A DNA stretch of 64,000 nt, taken from the NCBI GenBank assembly GCA_964455545.1, contig CAYVWQ010000010.1:23749-87748 (forward strand). The letters are read 5' to 3'. Each line of letters opens with the position of its first letter. Within the stretch, counting starts at the first letter, position 1. This document shows positions 22,289 to 50,885 of the stretch, piece by piece. The position numbers were made by a program, and so were the translations under genes. This DNA is from an uncultured Thermoleophilaceae bacterium (GTDB lineage Bacteria > Actinomycetota > Thermoleophilia > Solirubrobacterales > JACPNS01). The notes beneath the pieces are model-generated. The model had not been told where the DNA came from. It did not search any database and was given only the letters and a program-made list of their open reading frames with translations.

Positions 22289-22347
22289 CCGCACCTTCGG
22301 CCGCCCCCGGCGGTTATATCCTCGACCGCTCGGCGTGTCCGAAACCT

Positions 22348-28371: not shown

Positions 28372-30159
28372 TCAGTCCGCGCGAGTCACGCGCGCGGCTT
28401 CCGCGAGCGACACGAATCCCTGGCGGACCCGGTCGAGCGCGGCATCGGCAAGGGTGACCATTCCCTGCTCCTGTGCGGCCTGCTCGATCGCTTTGGCCGG
28501 GAACTTCTCAAGCACCATCTCGCGGATGCGGTCATCGATCGTCAGTACCTCGAACAGCCCTGTGCGCCCGCGATAGCCGGTGTTCGAGCACCGCGCACAG
28601 CCCACGGCCTCGAACCCCTCGAACGAATCCTGCAGGTCGACGTCGTAGCCGGCTTCGAGCATCGCCGTCCCGTCGATCGTGACCGGACGACGGCATTCAG
28701 TGCAGAGTTTTCGCGCAAGGCGGCTGGCCACGACGCACTCGACCGAAGATGCGACCAGGTAGCGCTCGACGCCCATCTCGGTCAGGCGTGTCACCGCCGA
28801 CGCCGCGTTGTTGGTGTGCAGGGTGGTCAGCACGAGACGCCCGGTCAGGGCAGCCTCGATCGCCGTGCGCGCCGTTTCGTGGTCGCGGATCTCGCCGACC
28901 ATCACGACGTCGGGGTCGCTGCGGAGCATCGATCGCAGGCCGACGGAGAAGGTCAGCCCGCGCTTGTTGTTCACCTGAACCTGGCGCACGCCGACGAGCG
29001 GGTATTCGACCGGATCTTCGATCGTGATGATCGTGCGCTCAGGCTGGTTCAGTTCAGCCAGCGCCGCGTAAAGGGTTGTCGTCTTGCCCGACCCCGTGGG
29101 TCCGGTGGCCAGGATCGCTCCGTGCGGCTTGCGTAGTGCTCGCTCGAGCGCCTTCATTCCTTCCGGGTCCAGTCCAAGCCGGTCGAGCGGCGGAACGTTT
29201 TTTCGGTCGAGCACACGAACGGCGGCCGATTCCCCGTAGATCGTCGGCAGCGTCGCGATCCGCAGGGTCACCTGCTGACCGTCGGGCCCGAAGCTCGCGC
29301 GTCCGTCCTGCGGGAGCTGGCGGACGGAGATGTCCATTCCTCCGAGCAGTTTGAGCCGCGCGAACATGCGCCCACCGAGCTGCGCGGCGACGTTCGTCGT
29401 GTCGTGCGCGATGCCGTCGATCCGGTAGCGCACCCGGACGCTCCCGTTTTCCAGCGTGTCGAGGTGGATGTCCGATGCTCGCTGACGAAGTGCATTGGTC
29501 AAGAGCTGTTCGAGCAGGTTCGCGGATGCCGTCTCGTCCTCCCCGTCGGGCTCGCCGATGGCGGTGGCTACTCCCGACTTGCGGTGTGCGTCCTCTGTGG
29601 CGCGCTGGACGTCGTTCTTGCTCAACCGCGAAAGCAGCTCCTCGAGCTGCTCCTCGGTGGTCAGGGCGGCGCGCACGTTGAGGCCGGTCATCAGAGCGAT
29701 GTCGTCGACGGCCAAAACGTTCGATGGTTCGCTGATCGCGACCATCAGCGTGTCGTCGTCGACGTATTTCACGGGCACCGCGCGGTAGCGGGCGGCCGTG
29801 TTGCTGTCGATCGCGTTGAGCGCTCGCTCTTCGAGCTCGAGCCCGCGCAGATCTATGTAGGAAAGCTGCGTACGCGCCGCGATCGCCTGCGCCAGCTGAT
29901 CCTTCGTGATCGTCCCGCGATCGAACAGGACGCGTCCGGTCGGCCGACCGGATTCACGAGATTCCTCGACGGCGGAAGCAACCTCATCCTCGCTCGCGAA
30001 GCCGAGCGCGACCACGATCTCGCCGATCCTGCGACCGACGAGCGATTGAGGCGCCGCGACGCGTCGGGGCGCCTCGGGAATGATCTGGGGTATGTCGTGC
30101 TCCAGCTCGGGCTCATCCGCAGCCTGTAGCCGGACGCCTTCCAGGGGAGAAGTCATCAC
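28372..30159 (-). CDS. GspE/PilB-family type II/IV secretion ATPase (stand-alone)
   Basis: T2SSE_N-like N-terminus, Walker A GPTGSGKTT, Asp/His boxes, tetracysteine CTEC...CARC. 595 aa. Confidence 0.85.
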   Translation of the reverse strand: MMTSPLEGVRLQAADEPELEHDIPQIIPEAPRRVAAPQSLVGRRIGEIVVALGFASEDEVASAVEESRESGRPTGRVLFDRGTITKDQLAQAIAARTQLSYIDLRGLELEERALNAIDSNTAARYRAVPVKYVDDDTLMVAISEPSNVLAVDDIALMTGLNVRAALTTEEQLEELLSRLSKNDVQRATEDAHRKSGVATAIGEPDGEDETASANLLEQLLTNALRQRASDIHLDTLENGSVRVRYRIDGIAHDTTNVAAQLGGRMFARLKLLGGMDISVRQLPQDGRASFGPDGQQVTLRIATLPTIYGESAAVRVLDRKNVPPLDRLGLDPEGMKALERALRKPHGAILATGPTGSGKTTTLYAALAELNQPERTIITIEDPVEYPLVGVRQVQVNNKRGLTFSVGLRSMLRSDPDVVMVGEIRDHETARTAIEAALTGRLVLTTLHTNNAASAVTRLTEMGVERYLVASSVECVVASRLARKLCTECRRPVTIDGTAMLEAGYDVDLQDSFEGFEAVGCARCSNTGYRGRTGLFEVLTIDDRIREMVLEKFPAKAIEQAAQEQGMVTLADAALDRVRQGFVSLAEAARVTRAD

Positions 30160-30250
30160 CTCCCTTTTCGGCTGTTTCGCGGCGAAACGTTACGTCGACG
30201 GGTCCAATTGGACTTTTCCCCTCCTGAAAGTCGGGCAATAGGCTCTCCGC

Positions 30251-32225: not shown

Positions 32226-33005
32226 ATGCGTATCAAGCTAATTGCACTCGCGACGGTTGTCGCAGCGCTCGCCATCGGCGCGGGAACTGCCAACGCCGCC
32301 CTGCAGAACAGCGTTTCTGCCAAGGTCAAGTTCAGCAAGGCTGGCGGACCGGGTTCGATTGAGCTGAAGCTCAACAACATCGACGAGAGCGTTGGCACGC
32401 CTGGCTACGGCAAGGTCACCGAGCGCATCAAGCAGCTCGTCGTCAAGTCGAACTCCGTCGCCGTGAACAGCAAGGCCCTGCCTTACTGCAACATCACGAT
32501 TCCGACGAACGCCGCCGGCAACAACGACTCGACCCAGCGGACCTACATCCCGGGCAAGAGCAACTCTTCGGCCATCACGAAGGCCTGCCCGAAGAACTCG
32601 CTGATCGGTAAGGGCACGTTCACCGCCGTCGACGGAACCGTCGGCCAGGCCGCCGACTGCTCTCAGGCCGGTTGCATCAAGGGAAACCTCTACGCGTACA
32701 ACTTCAAGCCGCGTAGTGGCGACCGCCTCGGTACCGTCGTGCTGATCCAGTCCGACACCCCGGTGCCGAACGCGTACCAGTACATGTACACCGGTTGGAG
32801 CAAGTCCAACACGCTGACGGCCGACGTTCCGGCGTGGAGCGACCTGCCGCCGATCATCTCGCAGTACCTGCCGCAGGGCACCATCACGATGACGTCGATG
32901 ACCCTGAAGCTGACTGCGCCGAAGCCGAAGAAGGGCAAGAAGCCGATCTTCACGATCAAGAGCTTCAAGAACCTCGACGTCTTTGGTTCGATCGTCCGCG
33001 AGTAG
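32226..33005 (+). CDS. hypothetical secreted protein (probably abundant: strong RBS and terminator)
   Basis: Signal peptide MRIKLIALATVVAALAIGAGTANA, GAGGAGG RBS, lower G+C, Lys-rich C-terminus. No family recognised. Confidence 0.6.
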   Translation: MRIKLIALATVVAALAIGAGTANAALQNSVSAKVKFSKAGGPGSIELKLNNIDESVGTPGYGKVTERIKQLVVKSNSVAVNSKALPYCNITIPTNAAGNNDSTQRTYIPGKSNSSAITKACPKNSLIGKGTFTAVDGTVGQAADCSQAGCIKGNLYAYNFKPRSGDRLGTVVLIQSDTPVPNAYQYMYTGWSKSNTLTADVPAWSDLPPIISQYLPQGTITMTSMTLKLTAPKPKKGKKPIFTIKSFKNLDVFGSIVRE

Positions 33006-33518: not shown

Positions 33519-34022
33519 ATGGACGACGACCAGAAGGCCGCTGAACAGGCCCCTGACATCCGCAGGCGCCGCCTGATTCTCTACGCAGCCGCGTCGTTGG
33601 CCCTTGCCGCTGTGATCGTCGCGGGCGTTCTGACGCTTTCAGGAGGCACCAAGAAGCCGTCCGCCAAGCCGAAGCTGAAGGCGCCGGTCATCGTCGAACG
33701 CATCCCACTGAAGCCGGTGGACGGCTCGAGCGCGCGGGGCCTTGGCGAGCTCGTGCGACGTGAGGACAAGGACGGGTTCCGGGTGCTGGCGGTGCAGCTC
33801 AAGCCGTCGTCCGGCGACAACCAGGCCTACCAGCTGGTCCTGACCGGCGGTGAACCGGAGAAGCTTCTCGGCACCGAGGTGGTCGGAAAGGACGGCGCTT
33901 TTGTTGGTGAATCGCCGGTCTCGGCAACCGAGCTACACAGTTTCAAGCGCGTCGAGCTACGCCGCGTTACGCGTAAACCTGAGACCGCGAAAACGGTTCT
34001 GCGCGGGAAGATCCCGAACTAA
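33519..34022 (+). CDS. hypothetical membrane-anchored protein (anti-sigma RskA-C-like ectodomain?)
   Basis: Charged N-terminus, one TM (LILYAAASLALAAVIVAGVLTL), beta-rich ectodomain with a YQLVLTGG segment. Confidence 0.45.
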   Translation: MDDDQKAAEQAPDIRRRRLILYAAASLALAAVIVAGVLTLSGGTKKPSAKPKLKAPVIVERIPLKPVDGSSARGLGELVRREDKDGFRVLAVQLKPSSGDNQAYQLVLTGGEPEKLLGTEVVGKDGAFVGESPVSATELHSFKRVELRRVTRKPETAKTVLRGKIPN

Positions 34023-34816
34023 GGCCGCTGCTGGACCAGGCGACGCAGGTCGCGCACGAGCAGCAGGTGCTTGAGGTGCGAGGTGACGGCGGTGAGGTTT
34101 TCGAGCGCCTCAACGGCCTCACCCCTCGACTCGCGGCTGCGTGAGCGGAGTGCCGGCGCGAAGATCTGCTCGAGCAGTGCCGCCTCGCGGTCAGCGGAGG
34201 TCTTGAAGACGCGCAGATTGCGCCCACTGACGCCGTAACGGGCAAGTTCGGTGACGGCGCGGATGATTTCTCGCTCGCTCTCGTCGAAATATGTGGCGCC
34301 GGCGCGACGGGACCCGGTCACGAGACCGAAGTCGATCAGCTCTTTGACCAGCTCCGGCGCGGCCCCGGTGTCAGCGAGAACGTCGTCGGCGGCGTAGAGC
34401 GTCTGGGCCTGCTCGTCGGTGAGGCTGAACCTGCGTCCGCTGCTACGGCCTGAGGGCGCGGCAGATGGAGCGGGAATCTCGTCCTCGGAGCGCCCGGCGG
34501 AGAGCTCCTGACGGATCACGCGGAGCGGCAGGTATTCGTCGCGCTGCAGGCGCAGGATCGTGCGCAGACGCGCGACGTCGTTCTGCGAGTAGACGCGGTA
34601 GCCGCCTTCGGTGCGCTTGGGCGTGAGCAGCTTCTGGTCTTCGAGGTAGCGGATCTTGGAGATCGAGACGTCGCCGAATTCTTTTGCGAGCGTCTTGCGC
34701 ACCGCGCCGATCGTGAGCGCCTTCTCGCGCGGAGCGATGATCGGGTCGGCGGCGCCATTGCCATTTGTGGCGCTGGCGGCGGAAGCCACTCCGGTCTGCG
34801 AGTCGACGCCTGACAT
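34019..34816 (-). CDS. MerR-family regulator, FtsR/Rv1828-like two-domain type
   Basis: MerR HTH LTIGAVRKTLAKEFGDVSISKIRYLEDQKLLTPKRTEGGYRVYS plus a second MerR-like C-terminal half. Its start shares one base with the FHA gene stop. Confidence 0.8.
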   Translation of the reverse strand: MSGVDSQTGVASAASATNGNGAADPIIAPREKALTIGAVRKTLAKEFGDVSISKIRYLEDQKLLTPKRTEGGYRVYSQNDVARLRTILRLQRDEYLPLRVIRQELSAGRSEDEIPAPSAAPSGRSSGRRFSLTDEQAQTLYAADDVLADTGAAPELVKELIDFGLVTGSRRAGATYFDESEREIIRAVTELARYGVSGRNLRVFKTSADREAALLEQIFAPALRSRSRESRGEAVEALENLTAVTSHLKHLLLVRDLRRLVQQRP

Positions 34817-35277
34817 CAGCGCTCCAGAAAGGTCAGCTTGAACTTTCCGACCTGCAGCTCGTCGCCGTCGGCGAGATGATGCGACTCGATGCGCCGACGG
34901 TTGACATATGTGCCGTTGAGCGAACCGAGGTCGTCGATGTGCAGGCCGTCGGCGCGCTTGACGATCACCGCGTGATTGCGCGAGACGGTCACGTCGTCGA
35001 GAAAGACATCCGAGTCCGTGTCTCGGCCGACGGTGAACCGCTCTCCTTCAAGTGTGAAACTGTCGCCGGCGCGGCCGCCGGTCCGAATCACCAGTGAGGG
35101 TCCGCCAGCGCCGGCGTCGACGCTGCTGACGGCTTCGCCCTCGGTGGTCTCCCCCAGCTCGTACTGGGCCGTGGTCGAGCCCGGGCTCGCCTCGTCGGCC
35201 AGGTAGGCACCGCACTTCTGGCAGTAGTTCGCGCCAGGCGGGTTGACGAACCCGCATTCAGGACAGTGCAGCGCCAT
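34816..35277 (-). CDS. FHA-domain protein with N-terminal zinc ribbon (GarA/OdhI-like position)
   Basis: CPECGFVNPPGANYCQKCG ribbon. FHA core FTVGRDTDSDVFLDDVTVSRNHA...SLNGTYVN. Confidence 0.85.
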   Translation of the reverse strand: MALHCPECGFVNPPGANYCQKCGAYLADEASPGSTTAQYELGETTEGEAVSSVDAGAGGPSLVIRTGGRAGDSFTLEGERFTVGRDTDSDVFLDDVTVSRNHAVIVKRADGLHIDDLGSLNGTYVNRRRIESHHLADGDELQVGKFKLTFLER

Positions 35278-35283: not shown

Positions 35284-35844
35284 CTACTCGCCTTCGGCCG
35301 GCGCGGCCGCCTTGCCCGACAGGATCTCGGTGAGTTGTTCGATGTCCTCGCCCGTGATCGTCGCCTCGCCCTCCTCGCGCTGCGTGCGCATGCGGTTGAC
35401 GAGCTCGGCGCGGAGAATGTCGATCTTGCCGTGGAGGATGCGGCGCTGGTAGGAAATTTCGCGTTCCTCCTCGGTGAGCTTGCGGATCAGGTCCTTCAGC
35501 TCGGGATCGGAAAGCGCGCTGAGGTCGGGGAACCCCTGCTCCGTGTCGGCGGACACATCGACGTCGCCGTCGGCCTCTGCCAGCGGGCCGCCGGGCGAGG
35601 CGTCGCTCTCGGCGGTGGTGATCAGGTCCGTGAGCTTGGCCACGTCGGCGTCGGTGATCGACTCGTTGCCGGCGTCGTGGCGCGCGCGCAGGCGGTTGAC
35701 CAGCTCAGCGCGCAGAAGGTCGATCTTGCCGTGGAGAATGCGCCTGCTGTAGGAAATCTCCTGTTCGGTCGACGCGAGGTCACCGATCAATCCCTTGAGT
35801 TCGGCGTCGCTCATCGAGCCGATGTCTGAAACCCATTCCTCCAA
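35284..35844 (-). CDS. tandem-duplicated coiled-coil protein, RsiG-like (candidate cyclic-dinucleotide-binding anti-sigma-type protein)
   Basis: 186 aa, TTG start with GAGGGGAG RBS. Residues 11-86 and 111-186 are homologous. Both copies carry E-x3-S-x2-R-x3-H-x3-D (EQEISYSRRILHGKID, EREISYQRRILHGKID). The CDS is solid; the function is inferred. Confidence 0.6.
   Translation of the reverse strand: MEEWVSDIGSMSDAELKGLIGDLASTEQEISYSRRILHGKIDLLRAELVNRLRARHDAGNESITDADVAKLTDLITTAESDASPGGPLAEADGDVDVSADTEQGFPDLSALSDPELKDLIRKLTEEEREISYQRRILHGKIDILRAELVNRMRTQREEGEATITGEDIEQLTEILSGKAAAPAEGE
35287..35814 (-). repeat. intragenic tandem duplication, period exactly 300 nt (100 codons)
   Basis: For example, GCGGTTGAC at 35392-35400 and 35692-35700. 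The core is GTCGATCTTGCCGTGGAG in both copies. 23 of 27 residues are identical in the protein core by manual count. Confidence 0.8.
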
Positions 35845-35908
35845 CGCGGCGCTCCCCTCGAAATAAACACGTGTCCAGCAGGTTCAGGCAGTATAAGCAA
35901 ACAAATCC

Positions 35909-36562
35909 CTAAGGCTCGACCCTTGGTTGAGGTCTTGCGTTCTGGGCCTCCCGCTGCAGTTTCAAGCTCTCGCGCGCCGACTTGACGTAAAGCGCAGTCG
36001 CCGCGTAAGAACCAACCACTCCCACCCATACAAGCACGTTCGCGACCGGAGTGTCGGCGCACAGGGCGATGAATCCGCCGGCCATCAACGGCCAGACCGA
36101 CAGACGACCGATCCAGTTGACCTCGATCGAGATGTGGCGCCTAAGGGCGTAGAGCGACATCACCAGCATCAACCCCTCACGCACGAAGACGAGGATTATC
36201 AGGTAGCGCGGGAGCAGTTCGAACTTGTAGATGATGATCCCGGCGGCGATGATCAGGAGTCGGTCGATCAGCGGATCGAGCAGTTTTCCCATACGGCTGA
36301 ACTGGCCGGTCAGACGCGCGGCGAGGCCATCGAGGTAGTCGCTCGCTCCGCAGATGAACATCGCGATGTTCGCGGTCGTATCGCGGCCGTCAGGCGAGTT
36401 CCAGGCCAGCACGAAGAACACCGGGATCAGCAGCGCGCGGACGTAGCCGATCGCATTTGGAATGGTCCACGGTCGCAGTGGCTCGCTGTCGCCGGTGCGC
36501 GCGTCCGGGCCGCCGGAACGGTCGATTCCTGCGATCCGCTTCAGGTTGCGTTCGCGTGGCAT
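35909..36562 (-). CDS. CDP-alcohol phosphatidyltransferase (PgsA / actinobacterial cardiolipin-synthase type)
   Basis: Trimmed to MPRERNLKRI (cat at 36560-62). Perfect DG-x2-AR-x8-G-x3-D-x3-D motif in DYLDGLAARLTGQFSRMGKLLDPLIDRL. Confidence 0.8.
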   Translation of the reverse strand: MPRERNLKRIAGIDRSGGPDARTGDSEPLRPWTIPNAIGYVRALLIPVFFVLAWNSPDGRDTTANIAMFICGASDYLDGLAARLTGQFSRMGKLLDPLIDRLLIIAAGIIIYKFELLPRYLIILVFVREGLMLVMSLYALRRHISIEVNWIGRLSVWPLMAGGFIALCADTPVANVLVWVGVVGSYAATALYVKSARESLKLQREAQNARPQPRVEP

Positions 36563-36575: not shown

Positions 36576-38276
36576 TCAATCGATCGTGGCAAGCCGCGAC
36601 GCGATCGCCGCGCAGGCGCCGTCGACCGGGATCGACTCTCCCGCCTGACCGCGACGAATCTGCAACTCCAACTCGCCGTTCTCAAGCCCGCGTTTGCCGA
36701 CTGTCACCCGCAGCGGGCACCCCAAAAGCTCGGCGTCAGCGAACTTCGCCCCCGGGCCGCCGTCGCGGTCGTCGTAGACAACTTCGACTCCTGCGCCGCG
36801 CAGCTCGTCGTAGAGGGCGTCAGCGACGCGCTGCTCCTCGGACCCCTCGCCCTTTGCGAGTGAAACGAGGTGAACCTGGAACGGCGCGATTGACTTCGGC
36901 CAGACGATGCCGGCGTCGTCGGCGAGTTGCTCGACTGCTGCGGCGGCCACACGCGCCGGGCCGATGCCGTAGCTGCCCATGACGATCGGGTGCTCTTTGC
37001 CCTGTTCGTCGAGGTAGGTCGCGCCGAGCGCCTCGCTGTAGCGCGTGCCGAGTTTGAAGATGTTTCCGATCTCGATCGCCGGGACGATCTCGATCGCTTC
37101 TCCCGAATCGGTGGTGTCGCCGGCCTCCACGCTACGAACGTCGGCGAACTCGGTCTGGAAATCGCGGCCGATCTCGACGCCCCGCAGGTGAGCGTCCGGC
37201 GTGTTCGCGCCGGTGATCCAGCCCTCTGGCTGGCCCTCGCACGCGCGGTCGGTGAGGACGCGTACAGAGGCCCCCACGGGGCCGGTGTACCCCGCGGCCG
37301 ACCCGAAGCGCGACGCGATCTCGTCCTCGCGTGCCTGGCGCATCGGCCTGCCAAGGGCGTTCTGGAGCTTGATCTCGTTCAGCGAGTGATCGCCCCGCAA
37401 CATCACGAGCAGCGGCGTTCCGTCCTCTTCGTCGATCATCGGCATCGCCTTGAGCAGCGTGCTGGCGTGCACGTCGAGCATGCCTGCGACCTCTTCGATC
37501 GTCGTCTTGCCCGGGGTGGAAACCTCTTCCGGGGCACTGAGCACGGGGCCGGCACTGCGCGGCTGAGCGGTCGCGGACGCGACTTCGACGTTGGCGGCGT
37601 AGCCCGGTGCCAGCGCCACGGAGTCCTCGCCAGCGGGGCAAGGGGCCATGAACTCATCCGCCCCCGATCCGCCCATCATCCCGACGTCGGACTCGACCAT
37701 GTACCACTCGAGGCCGGCACGGTCGAAGATCCGCTTGTAAGCAGCGGCCTGGGTCGCGTAGGAGCGCTCAAGCCCCTCGACGTCGCGATCAAAGCTGTAG
37801 GCGTCCTTCATCGTGAACTCCCGCGTGCGCAGCATCCCTGCGCGCGGACGCGGTTCATCGCGGCCCTTGGTCTGAAACTGGTAAAGCGTCAGGGGCAGGT
37901 CGCGATAGGAGCGCACCTCGCGTGCAACGTGATTCGTCACCGCCTCTTCGTGGGTCATCGCCAGGACGAGGTCGGCGTCCTTGCGGTCCTTCAGCTTGAA
38001 TAGCTCGGTGATCCCATATCGCCCGGTCTTCTGCCACAGCTCGGCCGGCTGGATCACGGGCATCAGCATCTCGATGGCGCCGGCTGCGTCCATCTCCTCG
38101 CGGATGATCTGTTCGACCTTGCGTTGAACGCGCCATCCGGCGGGCATGTACGTCCACAGGCCGGATCCGACCTGCCGGATCAATCCAGCCCGCACCATCA
38201 GCTTGTGCGAGATCGCCTCGGCGTCGGCCGGCGGTTGCTTCACGGTCGGGAGGAGATATTCGGAGAGGCGCGTCAT
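36576..38276 (-). CDS. proS: prolyl-tRNA synthetase (bacterial type with editing insertion)
   Basis: Trimmed to MTRLSEYLLPTVKQPPADAEAISHKLMVRAGLIRQ. Class II motifs present, 566 aa. Confidence 0.95.
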   Translation of the reverse strand: MTRLSEYLLPTVKQPPADAEAISHKLMVRAGLIRQVGSGLWTYMPAGWRVQRKVEQIIREEMDAAGAIEMLMPVIQPAELWQKTGRYGITELFKLKDRKDADLVLAMTHEEAVTNHVAREVRSYRDLPLTLYQFQTKGRDEPRPRAGMLRTREFTMKDAYSFDRDVEGLERSYATQAAAYKRIFDRAGLEWYMVESDVGMMGGSGADEFMAPCPAGEDSVALAPGYAANVEVASATAQPRSAGPVLSAPEEVSTPGKTTIEEVAGMLDVHASTLLKAMPMIDEEDGTPLLVMLRGDHSLNEIKLQNALGRPMRQAREDEIASRFGSAAGYTGPVGASVRVLTDRACEGQPEGWITGANTPDAHLRGVEIGRDFQTEFADVRSVEAGDTTDSGEAIEIVPAIEIGNIFKLGTRYSEALGATYLDEQGKEHPIVMGSYGIGPARVAAAAVEQLADDAGIVWPKSIAPFQVHLVSLAKGEGSEEQRVADALYDELRGAGVEVVYDDRDGGPGAKFADAELLGCPLRVTVGKRGLENGELELQIRRGQAGESIPVDGACAAIASRLATID

Positions 38277-38473: not shown

Positions 38474-39940
38474 ATGCAGCTTCTCGCCCGCAAATCCACG
38501 CTTTTCATCGCCCTTCTCGCCCTGCTCGCTGCGGGCGTTTTCGTTTCGGCCGCATCCGCGTCGACATCTCAGGTGTCGGTGATCGAAGACCCGCGCCGGA
38601 TCTACAGCGCCGACCCGTCCCTGCAGACAGCGGCGATGGACGAGGTGAAGGCGCTGGGCGCGAAGATCGTCCGGATCGGCATTCCCTGGCGTTCGGTGGC
38701 TCCGGACTCCGAGAACACCGTCAAGCCAGGGCTTGATCTCACCAACCCCGACGCCTACCCGGCCGGTTCGTGGGCGATTCTTGACAACGCGGTGAAGCTC
38801 GCCGAAGAGCGTGGCCTGCGCCCCTGGCTCGTGATCACCGTCCCCGCCCCGCGATGGGCTGTGCGGCAGGAGTCGGGCTCGTATCAGGGCAATTACAAGC
38901 CGAGCCCGACCTATCTCGGCGAGTTCGCGAAGGCCGTCGGACGTCGCTTCCAGTCGGTGAACATGTTCTCGATCTGGAACGAGGTGAACCTTCAGCGCTA
39001 CATCCAGCCGCAGCGCTCCGGCTCGAAGGTCTACTCGGCCATCCATTACCGCAAGATGTATCTCGCGGCGTACAACGGGCTCGTCTCATCGGGCCACAGC
39101 AAATCTTCGATCCTGATGGGCGAACTGCTGCCGCGCACCGGCACCGTGAAGTCGCCGACGGCAACCCCGCCGGTCACTTTCCTTCGCGCCTTCTTCTGCA
39201 TTGACAGCAAGGGCCGCAAGCTCAAGGGCAGCGCCGCGCGCAAGCAGGAGTGTTCGCACTTCAAGACGATCCGCGCCACCGGCCTCGCCTACCACCCGTA
39301 TTTCAACGCCTCCGGTCCCCTCTTCAAGGAGCCGTACTCCGAGAACGCGCCGATCATCTATCTGAAGCGAATCGAGAAGATCCTCGACCAGGCATATGCG
39401 GCCAAGCGCATCAAGACCAAGCGCATGAAGATCTACAACAGCGAGTTCGGTGTGCAGACGAATCCGCCGGACAAGTACACCGGGGTCTCGCTCAAGAAAG
39501 CCCCCGGATACCTCAACCTCAGCGAATACATCACCTGGGCCGACAAGCGCATCGCGACCTACTCGCAATACCTGCTGATCGACGACGTGGACATAAGCGC
39601 CTTCCAGTCTGGCCTGCGCTTCGACAACGGCGAGAAGAAGCCCGGCCTCTACGAGGCCTACCAGAACCCGCTCGTCGTGTTCAAGACCTCAAGCTCGAGC
39701 AAGGTGTACGTCTGGGGCGCCCTACGGGCGAAGGGCTCGGGCACCGCGGTCGCGCAGATCCAGACGAAGAACGGCGACAGCTGGTCGACGGTCGCAAACG
39801 TGTCTGTGAAGAGTTCGCAGGGGTACTTCTCGACCAACCTCAAGCTCAGCAACGCCAAGTCGAAGACCTACCGCATCCTCTGGGACGGCGGCACGAGCCG
39901 AGAGGCCAAGCCGCAGACGAAGCCGCGCGCGCGGAGCTGA
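38474..39940 (+). CDS. secreted glycoside-hydrolase-like protein (clan GH-A TIM barrel plus C-terminal beta domain), family uncertain
   Basis: Signal peptide MQLLARKSTLFIALLALLAAGVFVSAASA. VRIGIPW and FSIWNEVNL (an NE acid/base-like motif). Lower G+C than flanking genes. Confidence 0.5.
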   Translation: MQLLARKSTLFIALLALLAAGVFVSAASASTSQVSVIEDPRRIYSADPSLQTAAMDEVKALGAKIVRIGIPWRSVAPDSENTVKPGLDLTNPDAYPAGSWAILDNAVKLAEERGLRPWLVITVPAPRWAVRQESGSYQGNYKPSPTYLGEFAKAVGRRFQSVNMFSIWNEVNLQRYIQPQRSGSKVYSAIHYRKMYLAAYNGLVSSGHSKSSILMGELLPRTGTVKSPTATPPVTFLRAFFCIDSKGRKLKGSAARKQECSHFKTIRATGLAYHPYFNASGPLFKEPYSENAPIIYLKRIEKILDQAYAAKRIKTKRMKIYNSEFGVQTNPPDKYTGVSLKKAPGYLNLSEYITWADKRIATYSQYLLIDDVDISAFQSGLRFDNGEKKPGLYEAYQNPLVVFKTSSSSKVYVWGALRAKGSGTAVAQIQTKNGDSWSTVANVSVKSSQGYFSTNLKLSNAKSKTYRILWDGGTSREAKPQTKPRARS

Positions 39941-41227
39941 TCAGTTGCGGGCAAAGCGTCGCCCCGCCTGGGGTGACGCGGCCTCGTCGATCACGACGGG
40001 CTTGACCTGGGGCAGCTCAGCGGGATCGGTGAAGTCCTCGCCCTCGCGAGCCTTCGCAGCCTCGAGTGCGGCGAGCTTCTCCGGGGTGAGGTCGCCCGCG
40101 TTCTCCTCTTCGATCTTGCGGATGAACTCGGCGCCTTCGGCGGATGCCGCTTCGTCAAACTCGACCTTGCCACCCATCGCGAGCGACTTGTCGATCTCCG
40201 CGAAAAGCTCGTCCACGAGGCGCGGCGTCGGGACCTTGCGAATCGCCTTGCCCTGGGCGAAGATCACGCCCTCATTCTTGGCGCCGGCGATCCCGAAGTC
40301 CGCGGCCGCGGCTTCGCCGATTCCGTTGACGGCGCATCCCAGCACGGCGACCTCGATCGGCTCTTCATAGCTCTCGAGGCGCTGCTCAATTTCGGCGACG
40401 ACCGTGTCCATGTCGAACTGCAGGCGACCGCAGGTCGGGCAGGCGATCAGGACCGGGCCCTTCTCACGCAGTTGTAGCGCCTTGAGAATCTCCCAGGCGA
40501 CTTTGACCTCTTCCTCGGCGTGGAACGTCGAGAGCGAGATGCGAATCGTGTCACCGATGCCGTCGGCAAGCAGCGTGCCGAGCCCGACGCTCGACTTCAG
40601 CGATCCCGACCACTTGGTGCCGGACTCGGTGATGCCGAGGTGCAGCGGGTAGTCGATCTTCTCCGAGAGCAGGCGGTTCGACGCGATCGTGTTCGGCACG
40701 TTCGTCGACTTGATCGAGACCTTGAAGTTCTCGAAGTCGAGACGCTCCATCAACTCGACGAACTCGGTGGCTGCGGTGACGAGTGCTTCGACGGAGTTTT
40801 CCTTTTCGAGCTCGTGCAGATGCTTCGGCAACGAGCCGGAGTTGACGCCGATGGGCATCGGCGTGCCCTTCTCCTTGGCCTTCGCGACCACCTCAGCGAC
40901 CTTCTCGGGACCGCCGATGTTGCCGGGGTTCAGGCGGATCGCGTGTGCGCCGGCATCGATCGCCTTGAGCGCGAGCGTGTGGTTGAAGTGGATGTCGGCG
41001 ATAACGGGAATCGGCGACTGGACGACGATGTCCTTCAGCGCGACGACATCCTCGTCACGCGGGACCGCGCAGCGGACGATCTCGCAGCCAGCCTCGTGCA
41101 TGCGTTGGATCTGGTCGAGAGTCGCCTGCTTGTTGGCGGTCTCGGTCTTGGTCATCGACTGCACGACAACGGGCGCGCCGCCGCCGATCGGCACGTTGCC
41201 GACCCAGATCTGTTTCTTTGAGGCCAT
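39941..41227 (-). CDS. ispG: 4-hydroxy-3-methylbut-2-enyl diphosphate synthase
   Basis: GcpE pattern VQSMTKT, IVRCAVP, IRLNPGNIG, and a C-terminal CPTCGR Fe-S motif. About 60 aa of acidic C-terminal extension. Confidence 0.95.
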   Translation of the reverse strand: MASKKQIWVGNVPIGGGAPVVVQSMTKTETANKQATLDQIQRMHEAGCEIVRCAVPRDEDVVALKDIVVQSPIPVIADIHFNHTLALKAIDAGAHAIRLNPGNIGGPEKVAEVVAKAKEKGTPMPIGVNSGSLPKHLHELEKENSVEALVTAATEFVELMERLDFENFKVSIKSTNVPNTIASNRLLSEKIDYPLHLGITESGTKWSGSLKSSVGLGTLLADGIGDTIRISLSTFHAEEEVKVAWEILKALQLREKGPVLIACPTCGRLQFDMDTVVAEIEQRLESYEEPIEVAVLGCAVNGIGEAAAADFGIAGAKNEGVIFAQGKAIRKVPTPRLVDELFAEIDKSLAMGGKVEFDEAASAEGAEFIRKIEEENAGDLTPEKLAALEAAKAREGEDFTDPAELPQVKPVVIDEAASPQAGRRFARN

Positions 41228-41254
41228 GCCCTGAGGGTAGGTGGTCGGGGCCCG

Positions 41255-42334
41255 TCAGGGCCCGAAACCGCCGTTGGTGAATCGGTCGATGTCGTTCGTC
41301 AGTCCGATCGCGAACAGGACGCCGATCAAGGCGATTCCGACGATGCTGGCGCGCTCGAGAACCGGCACCGGGATTGGTTTGCCGCGCACCTTCTCGGCCA
41401 GCGCCCAGAAGATGTGTCCGCCGTCGAGCGGGAGGAACGGGAAGAGGTTGATGATCGCGAGACTGAGAGAGATCAGTGCGATAACGAGAATCGTCGTCTC
41501 TGTGTTGGTCTTGAAGGCCTGCTGTGTGCTCTTGTACCCGCCCGCGACGCTTGAAATCTGCTTGCGCTGTTCGTCGTTGAAGATGCGCGCCGGCAGAGAC
41601 AGCGTCAGCTTCGTCACGCGCCAGATCCCGTCAATCGAGTGGGTGAACGCCGCCGGGATCGACTGCGTCTCGGTGATGCTTCCGAATTGAATCCCGAGCC
41701 GCATTCGCTTGACCTCGGCGTCGTAGCGCGGGACTGCGTCGAAGGTGATCGTTTTTCCGCCGCGCTCGATCGTCACCTGGACCGGCTCTGAGGCCTTGCA
41801 ACCGTTCGTCTTTGCCCCCGCGCACTTCGACCTGGCGAGCTCCTTGACAAGCGTCTCCGGCGTCCCCTTGACGCCGTTGACGGCCTTGAGCGTGTCCCCT
41901 TGTCGGATCTGAGCCGCGGTCGAACCCGAAGGATCGACCTGGGCCACGCGGTTGGAGACTCCGGTGCTGGTTCCGATGAACGCGTACAGGACGAAGAGCA
42001 GGACGAAGGCGATCAGAACGTTCATCGCGGGTCCGGCGGCGATCACGACGATTCGCTTCCAGACCGGTTGCTTGAAGTACGCGCGCGGAAGATCCTCGAC
42101 CGGGATCTCCTCTTCGGGGTTCATGCCGGTGATCTTCACGAAGCCGCCGAGCGGGATCGCGCCGATCTCGTAGGTCGTCTCGCTGTTCTTCGGCTTGTAC
42201 TTGAAGAGTGCGGGTGGGAAGAACAGCGAGAACCGCGTCGCCTGCATGCCGACGGACTTGGCCGCGATGAAGTGCCCCCACTCATGGAGTACGACGAGCG
42301 CTGCGAATGCGACGAATGCGTAGAACCAACTCAT
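41255..42334 (-). CDS. rseP: RIP site-2 metalloprotease (M50, RseP/Rip1-like) with PDZ domain
   Basis: HEWGHF zinc motif at the N-terminus and a PFLPLDGG motif near the C-terminus. Confidence 0.85.
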   Translation of the reverse strand: MSWFYAFVAFAALVVLHEWGHFIAAKSVGMQATRFSLFFPPALFKYKPKNSETTYEIGAIPLGGFVKITGMNPEEEIPVEDLPRAYFKQPVWKRIVVIAAGPAMNVLIAFVLLFVLYAFIGTSTGVSNRVAQVDPSGSTAAQIRQGDTLKAVNGVKGTPETLVKELARSKCAGAKTNGCKASEPVQVTIERGGKTITFDAVPRYDAEVKRMRLGIQFGSITETQSIPAAFTHSIDGIWRVTKLTLSLPARIFNDEQRKQISSVAGGYKSTQQAFKTNTETTILVIALISLSLAIINLFPFLPLDGGHIFWALAEKVRGKPIPVPVLERASIVGIALIGVLFAIGLTNDIDRFTNGGFGP

Positions 42335-42341
42335 CTGCGAC

Positions 42342-43493
42342 CTACAACACGGTTTCGGCGATTGAGTTCCTCGCCTTTATCCGGGCCTCTTCGTCGATCG
42401 CGGCCAGCTGCGAGAAATGGCCGATCGGCGCGACCTCGACGGACTCCATGGTGCGTTCAATCACCTCGGCGATCGCCAGGAACGGGATCTCGCCGGCCAG
42501 AAAGGCCGCCACGGCGACCTCGTTCGCGGCGTTCATCGTGCAGGGCATCGAACCGCCTGCGCGACCGGCCGCCTCAGCGAGCGCCAGGCAGGCGAACGCT
42601 TCGCGGTCAGGCCGTTCAAAGGTCAGCGCGCCGACGGACGCAAGATCAAGCCGTTCAAGCGGCACGTCCGCGCGCGCCGGGTAGTTGAGCGCGTACGAGA
42701 TCGGCACGCGCATGTCGGGATAGCCGAGGTGAGCGAGCGTGGCGCCGTCATTCAGATCGATCAACGAGTGCACGATCGACTGCGGGTGCACCACTGCGTC
42801 GATCTGGTCGTAGTCAAGGCCGAAGAGATGGTGGGCCTCGATGATCTCGAGCCCCTTGTTCATGAGCGTTGCCGAATCGATCGTGATCTTTCCGCCCATG
42901 TCCCACGTCGGGTGCGCCAACGCGTCCTCGATCGACACCTCCCCAAGCTCGTCGCGCGTACGCCCGCGGAACGGCCCGCCGGAGGCCGTCAGGACGATCC
43001 GGTCGACCGAACCCGGCTGCTGGCCATCGATCAGCTGAAACAGCGCCGAGTGTTCCGAGTCGACGGGAATCAGATCCGCTCCCGTGCCCTCTGCAAGCTG
43101 CGTCACGAGGTCGCCGCCCACCACCAGCGACTCCTTGTTCGCGAGCGCCAGGTCGATCCCCTCGCCGAGCGTGGCGATCGTCGGTCCCAGCCCGGCCGAG
43201 CCGACTATTGCGTTCAGGACGATGTCGCACTCGGTCTCGGCGATCAGCTGGATGATTCCTTCGTGACCACTTCGCACGGTTCCGCGGTCCCACTGCTCGC
43301 TGGCGCGGGCTGCGGCGTGCGGGTCGGCGAGCGCGATCGTCTCGACGCGGTGCTTCTCGGCCTGTGCGACCAGCGCGTCGACGTCGCTGCCGGCCGAGAG
43401 ACCGACGACGATCAGGTCGTTGTTGCGCTCGATCACGTCGAGCGCCTGGGTTCCGATCGACCCCGTCGATCCGAGTATCAAGACCCTGCGCAT
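42342..43493 (-). CDS. dxr: 1-deoxy-D-xylulose-5-phosphate reductoisomerase
   Basis: ILGSTGSIGTQALDV NADPH motif, LANKESLV, 383 aa. Confidence 0.95.
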   Translation of the reverse strand: MRRVLILGSTGSIGTQALDVIERNNDLIVVGLSAGSDVDALVAQAEKHRVETIALADPHAAARASEQWDRGTVRSGHEGIIQLIAETECDIVLNAIVGSAGLGPTIATLGEGIDLALANKESLVVGGDLVTQLAEGTGADLIPVDSEHSALFQLIDGQQPGSVDRIVLTASGGPFRGRTRDELGEVSIEDALAHPTWDMGGKITIDSATLMNKGLEIIEAHHLFGLDYDQIDAVVHPQSIVHSLIDLNDGATLAHLGYPDMRVPISYALNYPARADVPLERLDLASVGALTFERPDREAFACLALAEAAGRAGGSMPCTMNAANEVAVAAFLAGEIPFLAIAEVIERTMESVEVAPIGHFSQLAAIDEEARIKARNSIAETVL

Positions 43494-43514
43494 GCGCCTT
43501 CCGAAGGTAGGCGG

Positions 43515-44450
43515 TCAGGACGCCAGAGGCGCCATCGCGAACCAGATGTAGTAGCCGACGACGATCGTGAACAGCGCCGCGTCGGCGCGATCCATTGCAC
43601 CGCCGTGCGCGCCGAAGGCCTTGCCGCTGTCTTTCACGCCGAAATCGCGCTTGATGTAGCTCTCGAAGACGTCGCCGAGCGGGGCTGCGATCGCCACGCC
43701 CATTCCGAGGAGCAGGGCGTTCTGCCCGGTGATCCAGTCCTGGTAGAGACCGGCGAACCAGACTGTGAGCGTCGCACCGACCATGCCGATGACGAGCCCC
43801 TCCACCGTCTTGTTCGGGGAGATCGCCGGCGCCATCTTCGTGCGTCCGAACATGCGGCCTCCGGCGTAGGCGAACGTGTCGCCGATGAACGTGCCGAGCA
43901 GGATGTCGATGATGATCATTTCGCCGTGCGGGAGCTGCTGCAGCCAAAGCGCGTGGGCGAGCGGGATTCCGAGCCAGAAGGCCCCGAAAAGCGTGAAGGA
44001 CATTCCGAACGTCGCGTTCTCACGCGCGCCGGTGAGCGCGCTGAGCAGGAACACCACAGGGAAGGACGCTGCGATCACGGCGACCAGCTGGAACTGGTCA
44101 CCCCAAAGTCCGACAAGGATCAGGGCGATCAGCGTGAGAAAGCCCGCCGCACGGATCGGCTGGACCTCGTGACCCATCACATAGAGCTCGTGCAGGGCGA
44201 CGGCGCCGACCACGAGCACGAGAGCCGTGAGGGTCTCCGGCGAAGTGAGGATGCAGATCAGGGCGAGGATCCCGGCCGGGACCGCGACCACGATACGACC
44301 GACGAGGTTCGATCGCGGACCCCTCATCCTCGGCGGCCTCGGTTCACGTGGCTCCGCGGGGCGCTCGCGCTCCGGGCGCGGCGGCCGGCTCCGGCGTGGC
44401 CGGGGTTCGTCAGCGGGCGCCAAAACGCCTCCCTCGCTGCTCGAAGTCAT
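43515..44450 (-). CDS. cdsA: phosphatidate cytidylyltransferase
   Basis: C-terminal SYIKRDFGVKDSGKAFGAHGGAMDRAD signature. An Arg/Pro-rich N-terminal extension overlaps the uppS end by 41 nt, so a later start (ATG 44327) is possible. Confidence 0.85.
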   Translation of the reverse strand: MTSSSEGGVLAPADEPRPRRSRPPRPERERPAEPREPRPPRMRGPRSNLVGRIVVAVPAGILALICILTSPETLTALVLVVGAVALHELYVMGHEVQPIRAAGFLTLIALILVGLWGDQFQLVAVIAASFPVVFLLSALTGARENATFGMSFTLFGAFWLGIPLAHALWLQQLPHGEMIIIDILLGTFIGDTFAYAGGRMFGRTKMAPAISPNKTVEGLVIGMVGATLTVWFAGLYQDWITGQNALLLGMGVAIAAPLGDVFESYIKRDFGVKDSGKAFGAHGGAMDRADAALFTIVVGYYIWFAMAPLAS

Positions 44451-45084
44451 CGAGCGCCGCTACCAGCTCGCTCTCGTCGAAGTCAGGCCAGAGCGCATCG
44501 GTGAAATACAGCTCGGAATAGGCGGTCTGCCAGAGCAGATAGTTCGACAGGCGGTGTTCGCCGCTGGTGCGAATCACGAGATCCGGATCGGTCATGTCCG
44601 GCGCGTACAGCAGCGCAGCGAACTCCTCCTCGGTCTCTCCGTCGAACCGTTTGGCGGCGTCGACCAGCTCGGCCCTGCCGCCGTAGTTGAAAGCCACGAA
44701 GAGCTTCAGGCGGTCGTTCTCGGCCGTCTCGGTCGTCGCCCAGTCCATCATGTCGCGAAGTTCGGCAGACAGGCCTTGCCTGCGACCGATGAACTGCATC
44801 CGCACGCCCTCTTCCTTCAACTCCGGCGTCTCGCTGCGCAGCAGTTCGGCGAACATCGCCATCAGGCCCTTGACCTCGTCGTCCGGGCGGGACCAGTTCT
44901 CGGTCGAGAAGGCGTACACCGTCAGCTCGTCGAGCCCGAGACGGACGGCATCCTTCACCGTGCGTTTCAAGGCCTGCGCGCCCTCGCGGTGGCCGTCGAG
45001 CGTCGAAACGCCCTCCTTGGCAGCCCAGCGAGCGTTGCCGTCCATGATGATCGCGACGCAACGCGCGCGCGTGGCGGCCTCCAT
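44410..45084 (-). CDS. uppS: isoprenyl (undecaprenyl-type) diphosphate synthase
   Basis: AIIMDGNARWA, FSTENWSRP and RTSGEHRLSNYLLWQ motifs. Confidence 0.9.
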   Translation of the reverse strand: MEAATRARCVAIIMDGNARWAAKEGVSTLDGHREGAQALKRTVKDAVRLGLDELTVYAFSTENWSRPDDEVKGLMAMFAELLRSETPELKEEGVRMQFIGRRQGLSAELRDMMDWATTETAENDRLKLFVAFNYGGRAELVDAAKRFDGETEEEFAALLYAPDMTDPDLVIRTSGEHRLSNYLLWQTAYSELYFTDALWPDFDESELVAALDDFEQRGRRFGAR

Positions 45085-45650
45085 CAGACCTCTAGGAGAT
45101 CGGCTTCTTTGTTCTTGAGCTGGCTGTCGACCTCGCCGATGTGGCGGTCGGTCAGCTTCTGGAGGTCGTCCTCGCCGCGCTTCTCGTCGTCCTCGCCGAC
45201 GTCGCCGCCGGTGCGTAGTTCTTTCAGCTCGTGCATGATGTCGCGGCGTACGTTGCGGATCGCGACGCGACCCTCCTCGGCGAGGTGGCGCGCCTGCTTG
45301 ACCATCTCATTGCGGCGCTCCTCGGTCAGTTCGGGGATCTGGATGCGTACGACGTTTCCGTCATTGTTCGGCGTGAGGCCGAGGTCCGAGTCCTGGATCG
45401 CCTTCTCGATCGACGGCAACGAGGACTTGTCGTATGGGGAGATCGTCAGCAGCCTTGCTTCGGCGGCGGCGATGTTGGCCATCTGGTTGAGCGGGGTCTG
45501 GGTGCCGTAGTAGTCGACCTGAATGCGGTCGAGCAGCGCCGGGCTGGCGCGGCCCGTCCGGACCGTGCCGAACTTCTCACTCGTGTTCTGCACCGACTTG
45601 ACCATGCGCTCGTCGGCGTCGGACAGCAATGCGTCGATCAGCTCGCTCAC
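45084..45650 (-). CDS. frr: ribosome recycling factor
   Basis: 188 aa, with the typical GRASPALLD and IRNVRRD segments. Confidence 0.95.
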
Positions 45651-46366
45651 GTGGCGACCACCGTTCCCACTCGCTCACCGTCGAGGATGCGCGAGATGTT
45701 CTGTTCGTCGTTCATGTTGAAAACATAGATCGGCAGGCGGTTGTCCATGCACAGCGACAGCGCCGTAACGTCCATCACTTTGAGCTCGCGCGCGATCGCC
45801 TCGTGGTGGCTGATCTCCTCGATCAGCTTCGCATCCGGGTTGCTGCGCGGGTCGCTGTCGAGCACGCCCTCCACGCCGTTCTTGGCCATCAGGATCGCGT
45901 CGGCGTGGATCTCGAGCGCGCGCAGGGCGGCGGCTGTGTCGGTGGTGAAGAACGGGTTTCCGGTGCCTGCGGCGAAGATCACAGCCCGCCCCTTCTCGAG
46001 GTGCCGGATCGCGCGTCGGCGGATGTACGGCTCTGCCACTTCAGCCATGGTGATGGCGCTGAGCACGCGCGTGTGGGTTCCCTGGCGTTCGAGTGCGTCC
46101 TGCAGCGCGATGCCGTTCAGTACGGTCGCGATCATTCCCATGTAGTCGGCGGTCGCTCGGTCCATGCCGGCCGCCGCGCCACTCATGCCGCGGTAGATGT
46201 TTCCGGCACCGACGACGACGGCCACCTCCACCCCGCGCTCGACGACGTCGTGAACCTGCTTGGCGACCTCGTCGATGCGTTCGGGGTCGACGCCGTAGTC
46301 CTGGTCGCCCTGAAGGGCTTCGCCCGAGAGTTTCAGGAGTATTCGCTTGAAAGCCGGCGCGCTCAT
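45647..46366 (-). CDS. pyrH: UMP kinase
   Basis: [12 protein letters not shown] and [11 protein letters not shown] motifs. Confidence 0.95.
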
Positions 46367-46379
46367 GCCGACGCGTAGC

Positions 46380-46979
46380 TTACGCGCCGACCTGGAAACG
46401 TGCGAAGCGGCGGATCACCACGTTCTCGCCGGTCTTGGCGGCGAAAGCGGCGCGGATCTGCTCGATCGTCTGACCGTCGTGCTTCTCGGGGTTGACGTGC
46501 GGCTGCTTGAGCAGCACGACCTCCTCGAGCCATTTGTTCAGCTTGCCCTCGACGATCTTTTCGCGGATGTTCTCGGGCTTGTCGGCGGCCTGCTCGGCGA
46601 AGATCTTGCTCTCGGCGGCCTTGGCCTCCTCGGGCACCTCGTCCTCGCTGACGTACTCGGGCGCCGCGGCGGCGATGTGCAGCGCGATGTCCTTCGCAAA
46701 CGCCGCGAAGTCCTCGTTGCGTGCGACGAAGTCGGTCTCGCAGTTGACCTCGACCATCACGCCGATCTTGCCGTTGGCGTGGATGTATTCGGCGATCAGA
46801 CCCTCGGAGGCCTCACGGTCGCCGCGTTTGGCGGCCGAGGCCGCTCCCTTCACGCGCAGCGCCTCGATCGCCTTGTCGACGTCGCCGCCGGCCTCGACGA
46901 GTGCCTTCTTGCAGTCCATCATCGCGGCGCCGGTCTGGTCGCGCAGCGCCTTCACGTCTGCAGCAGTGATCTCTGCCAT
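46380..46979 (-). CDS. tsf: elongation factor Ts (short form)
   Basis: [27 protein letters not shown]-like N-terminus, 199 aa. Confidence 0.9.
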
Positions 46980-46984
46980 GGGGT

Positions 46985-49836: not shown

Positions 49837-49850
49837 GAGAGCAAAAGACC

Positions 49851-50881: not shown

Positions 50882-50885
50882 GGCC

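Follow-up and report, generated by a model that had tools for sequence, protein, structure and literature searches.

The stretch of DNA considered here, referred to as the window, comprises 64,000 nucleotides (nt) from an uncultured Thermoleophilaceae bacterium. On its minus strand, a gene has been identified which codes for a protein of the RsiG family and in which the whole RsiG unit is present twice in tandem. RsiG is the only anti-sigma factor known to be armed by cyclic diguanosine monophosphate (c-di-GMP). It is also a textbook case for the conversion of a symmetric homodimer into an asymmetric monomer by internal duplication. The gene, rsiG, is located in a block with the order proS, a pgsA-like gene, rsiG, a gene for a protein with a zinc ribbon and a forkhead-associated (FHA) domain, and ftsR; the positions of these genes and of the features within rsiG are collected in Table 1.

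An earlier note on this DNA had described the product of 186 amino acids (aa) as two homologous units with an offset of 100 aa (300 nt) exactly, and this was reproduced. Between aa 11-80 and aa 111-180, 37 of 70 residues are identical, and in the core (aa 27-53 versus aa 127-153) 23 of 27; the repeated GCGGTTGAC is present at 35392-35400 and at 35692-35700, and both cores match the pattern E-x3-S-x2-R-x3-H-x3-D. Overall, the two units share 40 of 86 aa, a number which was never reached when unit 2 was shuffled 10,000 times (maximum 18), and the DNA of the two halves is identical at 163 of 261 positions. The TTG start was preferred over an ATG at residue 11, because the N-terminal EEWVSDIGS segment, located in the N-terminal ten residues, is kept in about 60 homologues, many of which start with M. 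An assembly artefact was ruled out as the source of the doubling. The identical protein is present on an independent Logan contig (L001), and about 60 distinct doubled homologues were identified in independent metagenomes and metagenome-assembled genomes (MAGs). In addition, the units are only 51% identical, selection acts on both of them, and the doubling recurs in many samples.

For the assignment to the RsiG family, the product was compared to profiles, sequences and structures. The Pfam family RsiG (PF22802) was matched with 125.6 bits (cut-off 27) in two stretches of the doubled protein, so that the profile search proposed in the earlier note gave a significant RsiG match. In a phmmer search against the sequences of the PDB, only RsiG proteins were significant, with Streptomyces venezuelae RsiG (6pfj/6pfv) at E=3.9e-13, both units being aligned, and Rubrobacter radiotolerans RsiG (7lq2-7lq4) at E=2e-10. 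An AlphaFold2 model of the protein alone was built on an alignment of 24 doubled homologues and reached a mean predicted local distance difference test score (pLDDT) of 76.6 and a predicted template modelling score (pTM) of 0.65. It contains two long helices (aa 13-57 and aa 113-158) with pLDDT >90 and a connector (aa 79-103) with pLDDT <50. When the model was compared to the PDB by Foldseek, the top four matches were all S. venezuelae RsiG, 6pfv/6pfj first, with a probability of 1.00, and the lower-ranked matches were long coiled-coil proteins, for example, p85 iSH2 and Rad50. Since the best structural matches of the model are RsiG, an antiparallel packing of the two long helices is predicted. 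The family assignment and the description of a clean whole-unit duplication with both ligand motifs intact are borne out by these matches, the repeat alignment and the motif matches: the gene codes for a member of the RsiG family with intact motifs. Since its 186 aa hold two complete units, each with a motif, the protein falls outside the definition of the single-motif homodimeric subclass, in which a chain of about 85-120 aa has a single motif. It carries the twin motifs in one chain of the Streptomyces-type subclass and does not have the long ordered inter-helix loop of the latter; its linker has a pLDDT <50, is variable in length and is near-neutral in evolution.

Table 1. Features of the doubled rsiG gene and of the genes in the same block (positions in the window)
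Feature	Positions	Strand	Description	Basis
rsiG, doubled form	35284..35844	-	186-aa RsiG-family protein, TTG start, TAG stop	ORF (open reading frame); Pfam; PDB sequence matches; AlphaFold2/Foldseek
Unit 1 (aa 1-78), diverged copy	35611..35844	-	N-terminal extension; coiled-coil helix aa 13-57; short C-terminal helix aa 65-80	
c-di-GMP motif 1 (predicted)	35719..35766	-	EQEISYSRRILHGKID, aa 27-42, E27-S31-R34-H38-D42	Motif match; conservation
Acidic inter-unit linker, aa 79-104	35533..35610	-	Variable length, predicted disordered	pLDDT; ratio of non-synonymous to synonymous substitution rates (dN/dS)
Unit 2 (aa 105-186 and stop), ancestral-like copy	35284..35532	-	FPDL N-terminal extension; coiled-coil helix aa 113-158; C-terminal helix aa 165-176	
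c-di-GMP motif 2 (predicted)	35419..35466	-	EREISYQRRILHGKID, aa 127-142, E127-S131-R134-H138-D142	Motif match; conservation
Shine-Dalgarno-like GAGGGGAG	35852..35859	-	7 nt 5' of the rsiG TTG start	Read from sequence
Zinc-ribbon and FHA protein (GarA/OdhI-like)	34816..35277	-	Starts 6 nt after the rsiG stop	Pfam FHA 71.9 bits; Zn_Ribbon_1
ftsR (MerR-family regulator)	34019..34816	-	Longest ORF overlaps the FHA stop by 1 nt	NCBIfam TF_FtsR_Actino 218.9 bits (cut-off 150)
CDP-alcohol phosphatidyltransferase (pgsA/clsA-like)	35909..36562	-	64 nt 5' of rsiG	Pfam CDP-OH_P_transf 101.8 bits; 217-aa gene call in L001
proS (prolyl-tRNA synthetase)	36576..38276	-	Upstream end of the conserved block	tRNA-synt_2b, tRNA_edit, HGTP_anticodon in L001

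Homologues of the doubled protein were identified in a first protein search, which revealed about 60 doubled proteins of 175-195 aa with 70-90% identity, the named ones being from Solirubrobacterales MAGs, together with hundreds of single-unit proteins which are 60-80% identical to one unit. In a later search, the single-unit family comprised at least 7,979 clusters at E ≤1e-10. A genome scan with one genome per species identified 80 loci, all labelled as Thermoleophilia or as unclassified Actinomycetota MAGs, for which the gene order was assessed by tblastn with the neighbour genes of the window. The order proS, pgsA-like, rsiG, zinc-ribbon/FHA, ftsR was present in all 80. Here, rsiG is doubled in two loci only, L002 and L003, and the other 78 code for single-unit proteins of 84-94 aa which start with M(E)DTFPDLG. 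The extended gene order of the window is also that around P0067 (locus L082), a doubled member which is more divergent.

In the genome of an isolate, Conexibacter arvalis, an 84-aa protein of the His type (MDTFPDLG...VPGGEQS) is encoded within ispG-...-proS-pgsA-rsiG-FHA-ftsR. The cloning primers of Schumacher et al. 2021 give the ends of the RsiG from Conexibacter woesei (RsiGCw), with the forward primer ATGGACACCTTCCCGGATCTGG encoding MDTFPDL(G) and the reverse primer encoding ...VPGGEPN followed by the stop, and show that RsiGPm begins with MEDTFPD. RsiGCw was co-purified with WhiGCw and showed self-interaction in a two-hybrid assay, and one RsiG per genome was reported, except for two in Acidothermus cellulolyticus 11B (PMC8325347). 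Since the ends of the C. arvalis protein are close to the primer-encoded ends of RsiGCw and its gene occupies the same slot, and since one RsiG is present per genome, RsiGCw is the syntenic orthologue of the window gene. The doubled gene is, in other words, the positional orthologue of a validated RsiG.

The constraint on the two halves was assessed by a comparison of dN/dS between the window, L002 and L003. Values of 0.06-0.16 were obtained for unit 1, 0.04-0.09 for unit 2 and 0.3-1.4 for the linker, the length and sequence of which vary among the doubled homologues. Purifying selection acts on the two units, and the linker is free to change.

For the single-motif RsiG proteins of other Thermoleophilia and of Rubrobacter, which consist of 84-118 aa, a homodimer forming an antiparallel coiled coil has been described. 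In the Rubrobacter complex, the antiparallel coiled coil of two identical chains holds (c-di-GMP)2, and sigma-4 touches one chain only. By analogy to these proteins, the doubled protein can be regarded with good confidence as a monomeric, c-di-GMP-dependent anti-sigma factor that targets WhiG and in which the dimer would be present in a fused form. An in-frame tandem duplication of the whole unit, including the N-terminal extension, the motif helix and the C-terminal helix, would have placed both halves of the dimer in one chain, tethered by a disordered acidic linker of about 25 residues. The two long helices, aa 13-57 in unit 1 and aa 113-158 in unit 2, would pack antiparallel, which would bring E27/S31/R34/H38/D42 and E127/S131/R134/H138/D142 together for the binding of (c-di-GMP)2. 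In this head-to-tail fusion, the extension at the C-terminus of unit 1 would be connected to the one at the N-terminus of unit 2, and a linker as short as about 25 residues would suffice because, as judged from the published dimer structure, the joined segments should lie at the same end of the antiparallel pair. The fusion would remove the need for dimerisation and would allow the two halves to diverge; only unit 1 appears to have done so, unit 2 having remained ancestral-like. Each half may specialise for one domain of the sigma factor, which would amount to a subfunctionalisation of the units.

Several observations weigh against this reading. The Foldseek matches to RsiG are moderate in TM score (0.42-0.51) and weak in E-value (~4e-3). 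At L082 2031-2588, which codes for P0067, the flanking genes are 75-82% identical to those of the window and RsiG only 49%, so that the constraint is not uniform in the lineage; unit 2 of P0067 contains Gln and a Rubrobacter-like QGRID and has lost the LVNRMR segment. RsiG can, as seen at this locus, evolve fast in the doubled lineage. The tight and ancient linkage to the FHA gene and ftsR hints at a role beyond the WhiG model. In unit trees (neighbour-joining, 74-column alignment, 200 bootstraps), unit 1 and unit 2 were exclusive sisters in none of the 200 replicates, with unit 1 on a long, deep branch, and unit 1 was placed inside the Thermoleophilia group in only about 20-55% of the replicates; at depth, the support of the trees is poor. 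Finally, no sigma-70-family gene was identified in the 64-kb window, either by a regular expression for sigma region 2 or by Pfam scans of 56 ORFs.

For the origin of the doubled form, which is common to the window, L002, L003 and L082, the two units were compared to the 78 single-unit proteins. Unit 2 has a mean identity of 72% to these proteins (68-78%) and is thereby as near to them as the single-unit proteins are among themselves in the pairs compared (72-76%). Unit 1 has a mean identity of 56% to the single-unit proteins (53-62%) and of 51% to unit 2. When the comparison was extended to 14 other RsiG-like doubled proteins of metagenomic origin, the mean identity to their units was 39% for unit 1 (best 45%) and 45% for unit 2. 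Thermoleophilia-specific states were defined by ten alignment columns which are near-fixed in the single-unit proteins of Thermoleophilia and rare elsewhere; 9 of the 10 are kept in unit 2 and 5 of the 10 in unit 1, compared to a median of 1 and a maximum of 3 in 36 outgroup units. In the bootstraps, the unit 1 set was monophyletic in 161-187 of 200 replicates and the unit 2 set in 158-163 of 200, with unit 2 nested among the single-unit proteins. The identity values, the signature residues and the synteny speak for a duplication specific to the lineage; the unit tree does not decide the point. A small lineage of Solirubrobacterales probably acquired the doubled form by a tandem duplication in its ancestor, which was followed by faster change in unit 1. 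Thermoleophilia have been reported to hold only single-motif RsiGs, and a doubled RsiG in this class, which is probably independent and young, is new.

Alternatively, a protein of the same function might have inherited its doubling from the ancient duplication of the Streptomyces-type twin-motif RsiGs, and the single units of Thermoleophilia would then represent secondary losses. This would agree with the deep position of unit 1 in the neighbour-joining trees, outside the cluster of unit 2 and the single-unit proteins and never as the exclusive sister of unit 2, with the many other doubled RsiG-like proteins in metagenomes, and with the N-terminal 'LSDL...EEL' segment, which is also kept in the second unit of S. 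venezuelae RsiG. However, 78 of the 80 scanned loci contain a single unit at the same position, so that an ancient duplication requires one or more unit losses. Compared to S. venezuelae RsiG, unit 2 is nearer to helix alpha-1 (49%) than to helix alpha-5 (34%), and unit 1 shows no preference (39% versus 38%); these values do not fit a shared duplication with conserved unit order and contradict an orthology of the order of the units. Moreover, the 5 of 10 Thermoleophilia-specific states in unit 1 exceed those of every outgroup unit (≤3), and the identity of unit 1 to Thermoleophilia single units (56%) compares to at most 45-47% to any other unit. A separate doubled RsiG, P0064 (L087 329-859; MAG GCA_030155225.1), was also identified in the pgsA-rsiG-FHA slot, with His in one unit and Gln in the other. 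Since its units are each other's sisters (166 of 200 bootstraps), duplication recurs at the rsiG locus. An inheritance of the doubling from the Streptomyces-type proteins is, on balance, clearly unlikely.

At least 14 further doubled RsiG-like clusters of 143-182 aa were identified in metagenomes (P0195, P0198, P0204, P0213, P0215, P0217, P0220, P0233, P0235, P0241, P0246, P0249, P0263 and P0268). In these, both units start with a (F/L)PDL-type segment, and both His and Gln occur among the motifs. This diversity of the doubled forms suggests that they may have arisen more than once.

Immediately 3' of rsiG, the FHA gene was identified in 80 of 80 loci. In the window, a zinc ribbon (CPECG...CQKCG) is present at the N-terminus of the encoded protein, which also contains a stretch rich in Thr, STTAQYELGETTEGE. 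This stretch is similar to the phospho-acceptor ETTS region of GarA/OdhI. Against the NCBIfam OdhI equivalog, the protein scored 113.9 bits, which is under the cut-off of 200, and it is OdhI-like by its domain and its position 5' of ftsR only. No promoter or terminator consensus above chance was found inside the rsiG block, and the gene order and spacing make it likely that rsiG is co-transcribed with the GarA/OdhI-like FHA gene and ftsR. For Actinobacteria in general, it was reported that ftsR is always found 3' of odhI/garA, that the region 5' of odhI varies, and that the signal of FtsR is unknown (Kraxner et al. 2019, PMC6683498).

A similar arrangement was identified for rsiG of the Rubrobacter type. 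A search with a fragment of Rubrobacter RsiG gave three relatives on short contigs only and no isolate genomes. On one of these contigs (L083 1012-2557), a single-unit rsiG with the Rubrobacter-type Gln motif (P0131, QGRID) overlaps the start of a zinc-ribbon/FHA gene, which is followed by an ftsR homologue; 5' of rsiG, a phosphoglucomutase-like gene is located instead of pgsA. The linkage rsiG-FHA-ftsR is common to the Thermoleophilia-type and the Rubrobacter-type rsiG. The earlier note had regarded the context of pgsA, FHA and ftsR as one not known to be described for RsiG. This held for the literature, the linkage being described in neither of the RsiG papers, and no paper combining RsiG with FtsR, OdhI or GarA, or with Solirubrobacter, was found in the literature searched; it did not hold as a peculiarity of this gene, since this is where rsiG is normally located in Thermoleophilia (80/80). 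The conserved arrangement itself is new with respect to the literature searched. In metagenome assemblies of the ENA, gene calls in which RsiG seems to be fused to FHA, zinc-ribbon or pgsA domains (P0086, P0094, P0110, P0112 and P0078) are frameshift read-throughs, which nonetheless confirm the gene order. The RsiG-FHA fusions P0086, P0094, P0110 and P0112 were rejected as evidence of an interaction, the gene calls being frameshifted with the zinc ribbon out of frame.

A wider proposal would combine the history of the gene with its location. It holds that the duplication is recurrent (at least two events for RsiG of the Thermoleophilia type, one each for the window and P0064 forms, and additional doubled families elsewhere) in place of the single ancient event proposed in 2021, and that rsiG is an integral, possibly translationally coupled first gene of an FHA (GarA/OdhI-like)-ftsR operon in basal actinobacterial classes. 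The c-di-GMP/WhiG switch would then be wired, physically or by regulation, to Ser/Thr-kinase signalling and ftsZ transcription, possibly via a second partner of RsiG. Taken as a whole, this proposal is rather unlikely. In a related alternative, the doubled protein would be a retargeted c-di-GMP binder, the main or second partner of which is the FHA protein or FtsR, so that c-di-GMP would be coupled to Ser/Thr-kinase signalling and ftsZ transcription, either in place of the sequestration of WhiG or besides it. The spacing of 6 nt between rsiG and the FHA gene, the overlap of the FHA stop with the start of ftsR and the block free of a terminator or promoter consensus would fit such a partnership, as would the linkage in 80 of 80 Thermoleophilia loci and beside the Rubrobacter-type rsiG and the constant position of ftsR downstream of odhI/garA. 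However, RsiGCw, which is from a genus with the same operon, binds WhiGCw (PMC8325347), gene neighbourhood alone is no proof of a physical interaction, and the fusions of RsiG and FHA in the databases are frameshift artefacts. A retargeting is quite improbable, and WhiG is preferred as the partner of the doubled protein.

The earlier note had further taken His in place of the guanine-contacting Gln in both motifs as possibly changing the specificity, which was not borne out; the exchange is also not new. For RsiG homologues, it was reported that Gln is often exchanged for His, that His is able to make the same guanine-stacking contact and is common in helix alpha-1 of the characterised-type RsiGs, and that the guanine specificity is set by the Arg and the Asp of the motif (PMC8325347). 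For RsiGCw, which contains the motif E(X)3S(X)2R(X)3H(X)3D, a dissociation constant (Kd) of 25 ± 2 µM was determined with a c-di-GMP probe, compared to 12 µM for c-di-GMP and the Gln-type RsiGRr (PMC8325347). In 81 loci compared, His was present in 84 of 84 motifs. Among the 24 doubled homologues, E27, S31, R34, H38 and D42 are invariant, as are E127, S131, R134 and D142, and H138 is nearly so, with Q at this position in P0067 and P0064. For Thermoleophilia, His in place of the Gln is the rule and has already been characterised; in the doubled protein, it would stack on guanine. It is highly improbable that His abolishes or alters nucleotide binding and leaves a ligand-independent coiled coil or a sensor of another dinucleotide, of pH or of metal: His is chemically unlike Gln and present in both motifs, and binding by the window protein itself is a prediction, but the His-type RsiGCw binds c-di-GMP, His is common in characterised-type RsiGs and universal in the class, and the specificity-giving Arg and Asp are invariant in the doubled homologues.

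With respect to WhiG, the remaining genes of the window were also inspected. GGDEF and EAL domains were not found in the Pfam scans of the 56 ORFs. The statement of the earlier note that no sigma factor gene is adjacent to rsiG stood, none being present in the window; that this is unusual was not shown. The genes rsiG and whiG are not known to be linked in Streptomyces, and sigD/whiG is located just 5' of rpsB in Bacillus and Streptomyces. In the window, the genes 5' of rpsB (rluD, lspA, yggT, proC and sepF) were checked, and no whiG was found among them. They belong to a housekeeping block on the minus strand (39941-51410) consisting of sepF, proC, yggT, lspA, rluD, rpsB, tsf, pyrH, frr, uppS, cdsA, dxr, a gene for an RseP-like M50 protease and ispG, which is followed by one gene with no assigned identity and then by proS-pgsA-rsiG-FHA-ftsR. 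According to the literature, RsiG always co-occurs with WhiG.

The WhiG promoter consensus TAAA-N16-GCCGATAA, with up to two mismatches, gave 3 matches in the window compared to 1.0 expected. About 5 kb 3' of rsiG, a gene for a PilB-like type II/IV secretion ATPase with an N-terminal MshEN domain is located (28372-30159, minus strand). Directly 5' of its start, TAAC-N16-GCCGAAAA is present at 30165-30192 (minus strand), with two mismatches from the consensus; the motif is not conserved 5' of the L002 orthologue, and the gene is lacking in L003. The matches to WhiG-type promoters were rejected as too weak to serve as evidence. The MshEN domain family is known as a c-di-GMP receptor. In Rubrobacter, the RsiG-WhiG switch was shown to control type IV pili (PMC8325347). 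Three plus-strand ORFs of the window (22285-23118, 32226-33005 and 38474-39940) have no Pfam match and a GC content at the first codon position of 0.49-0.55, which is markedly below that of their neighbours. Two of them have signal-peptide-like N-termini, and for the 259-aa ORF, homologues at the equivalent position were identified in no loci other than L002 and L003.

As a young and clean fused dimer, the doubled RsiG would represent a natural intermediate on which the model of a transition from homodimer to monomer can be tested: it occupies the same locus as its single-unit orthologues, with one half conserved and one half diverging. The arrangement rsiG-FHA-ftsR in two basal actinobacterial classes offers a cheap lead to a possible link of c-di-GMP with cell division and metabolic control.

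In comparison to the odhI/garA-ftsR cluster (PMC6683498), the window contains the same direct succession of an FHA gene and a MerR-type ftsR, the latter above the NCBIfam FtsR cut-off with 218.9 bits. It differs in that rsiG lies immediately 5', as also in the Rubrobacter-type loci, and in that the FHA protein has a zinc ribbon at its N-terminus and falls below the OdhI equivalog cut-off. Furthermore, in Corynebacterium, a bifunctional nuclease and a second MerR gene follow ftsR (PMC6683498), whereas neither is found downstream here.

The single-motif RsiG proteins of Thermoleophilia and Rubrobacteria (RsiGCw Cwoe_3492, RsiGPm, RsiGTa and RsiGRr; 7LQ2-7LQ4) share with the doubled protein the Pfam family, the motif E-x3-S-x2-R-x3-(H/Q)-x3-D, with His as in RsiGCw, the N-terminal FPDL segment, the C-terminal helix and the slot proS-pgsA-rsiG-FHA-ftsR. 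Their identity to unit 2 is 68-78%, while unit 1 has diverged to 56%. In contrast to these proteins, the window protein contains two full units per chain with a disordered acidic linker, so that the dimer would be covalent and asymmetric.

The structure that matches best is that of S. venezuelae RsiG/AmfC (6PFJ, 6PFV; Gallagher et al. 2020), and its sequence match is also significant. Here, also, one chain replaces the homodimer, with two motifs on two helices of an intramolecular antiparallel coiled coil, which for the window protein is predicted from the structural matches of its model. However, the units of the window protein are far more alike (51% versus 32% over the aligned helices), and each of them has both flanking segments. 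The long ordered loop of S. venezuelae RsiG, which shields c-di-GMP and contacts WhiG, contrasts with a short, variable and disordered acidic linker, and His in both motifs and the location in the FHA-ftsR operon are further differences. The duplication which gave rise to the doubled protein is most likely an event separate from the one in Streptomyces.

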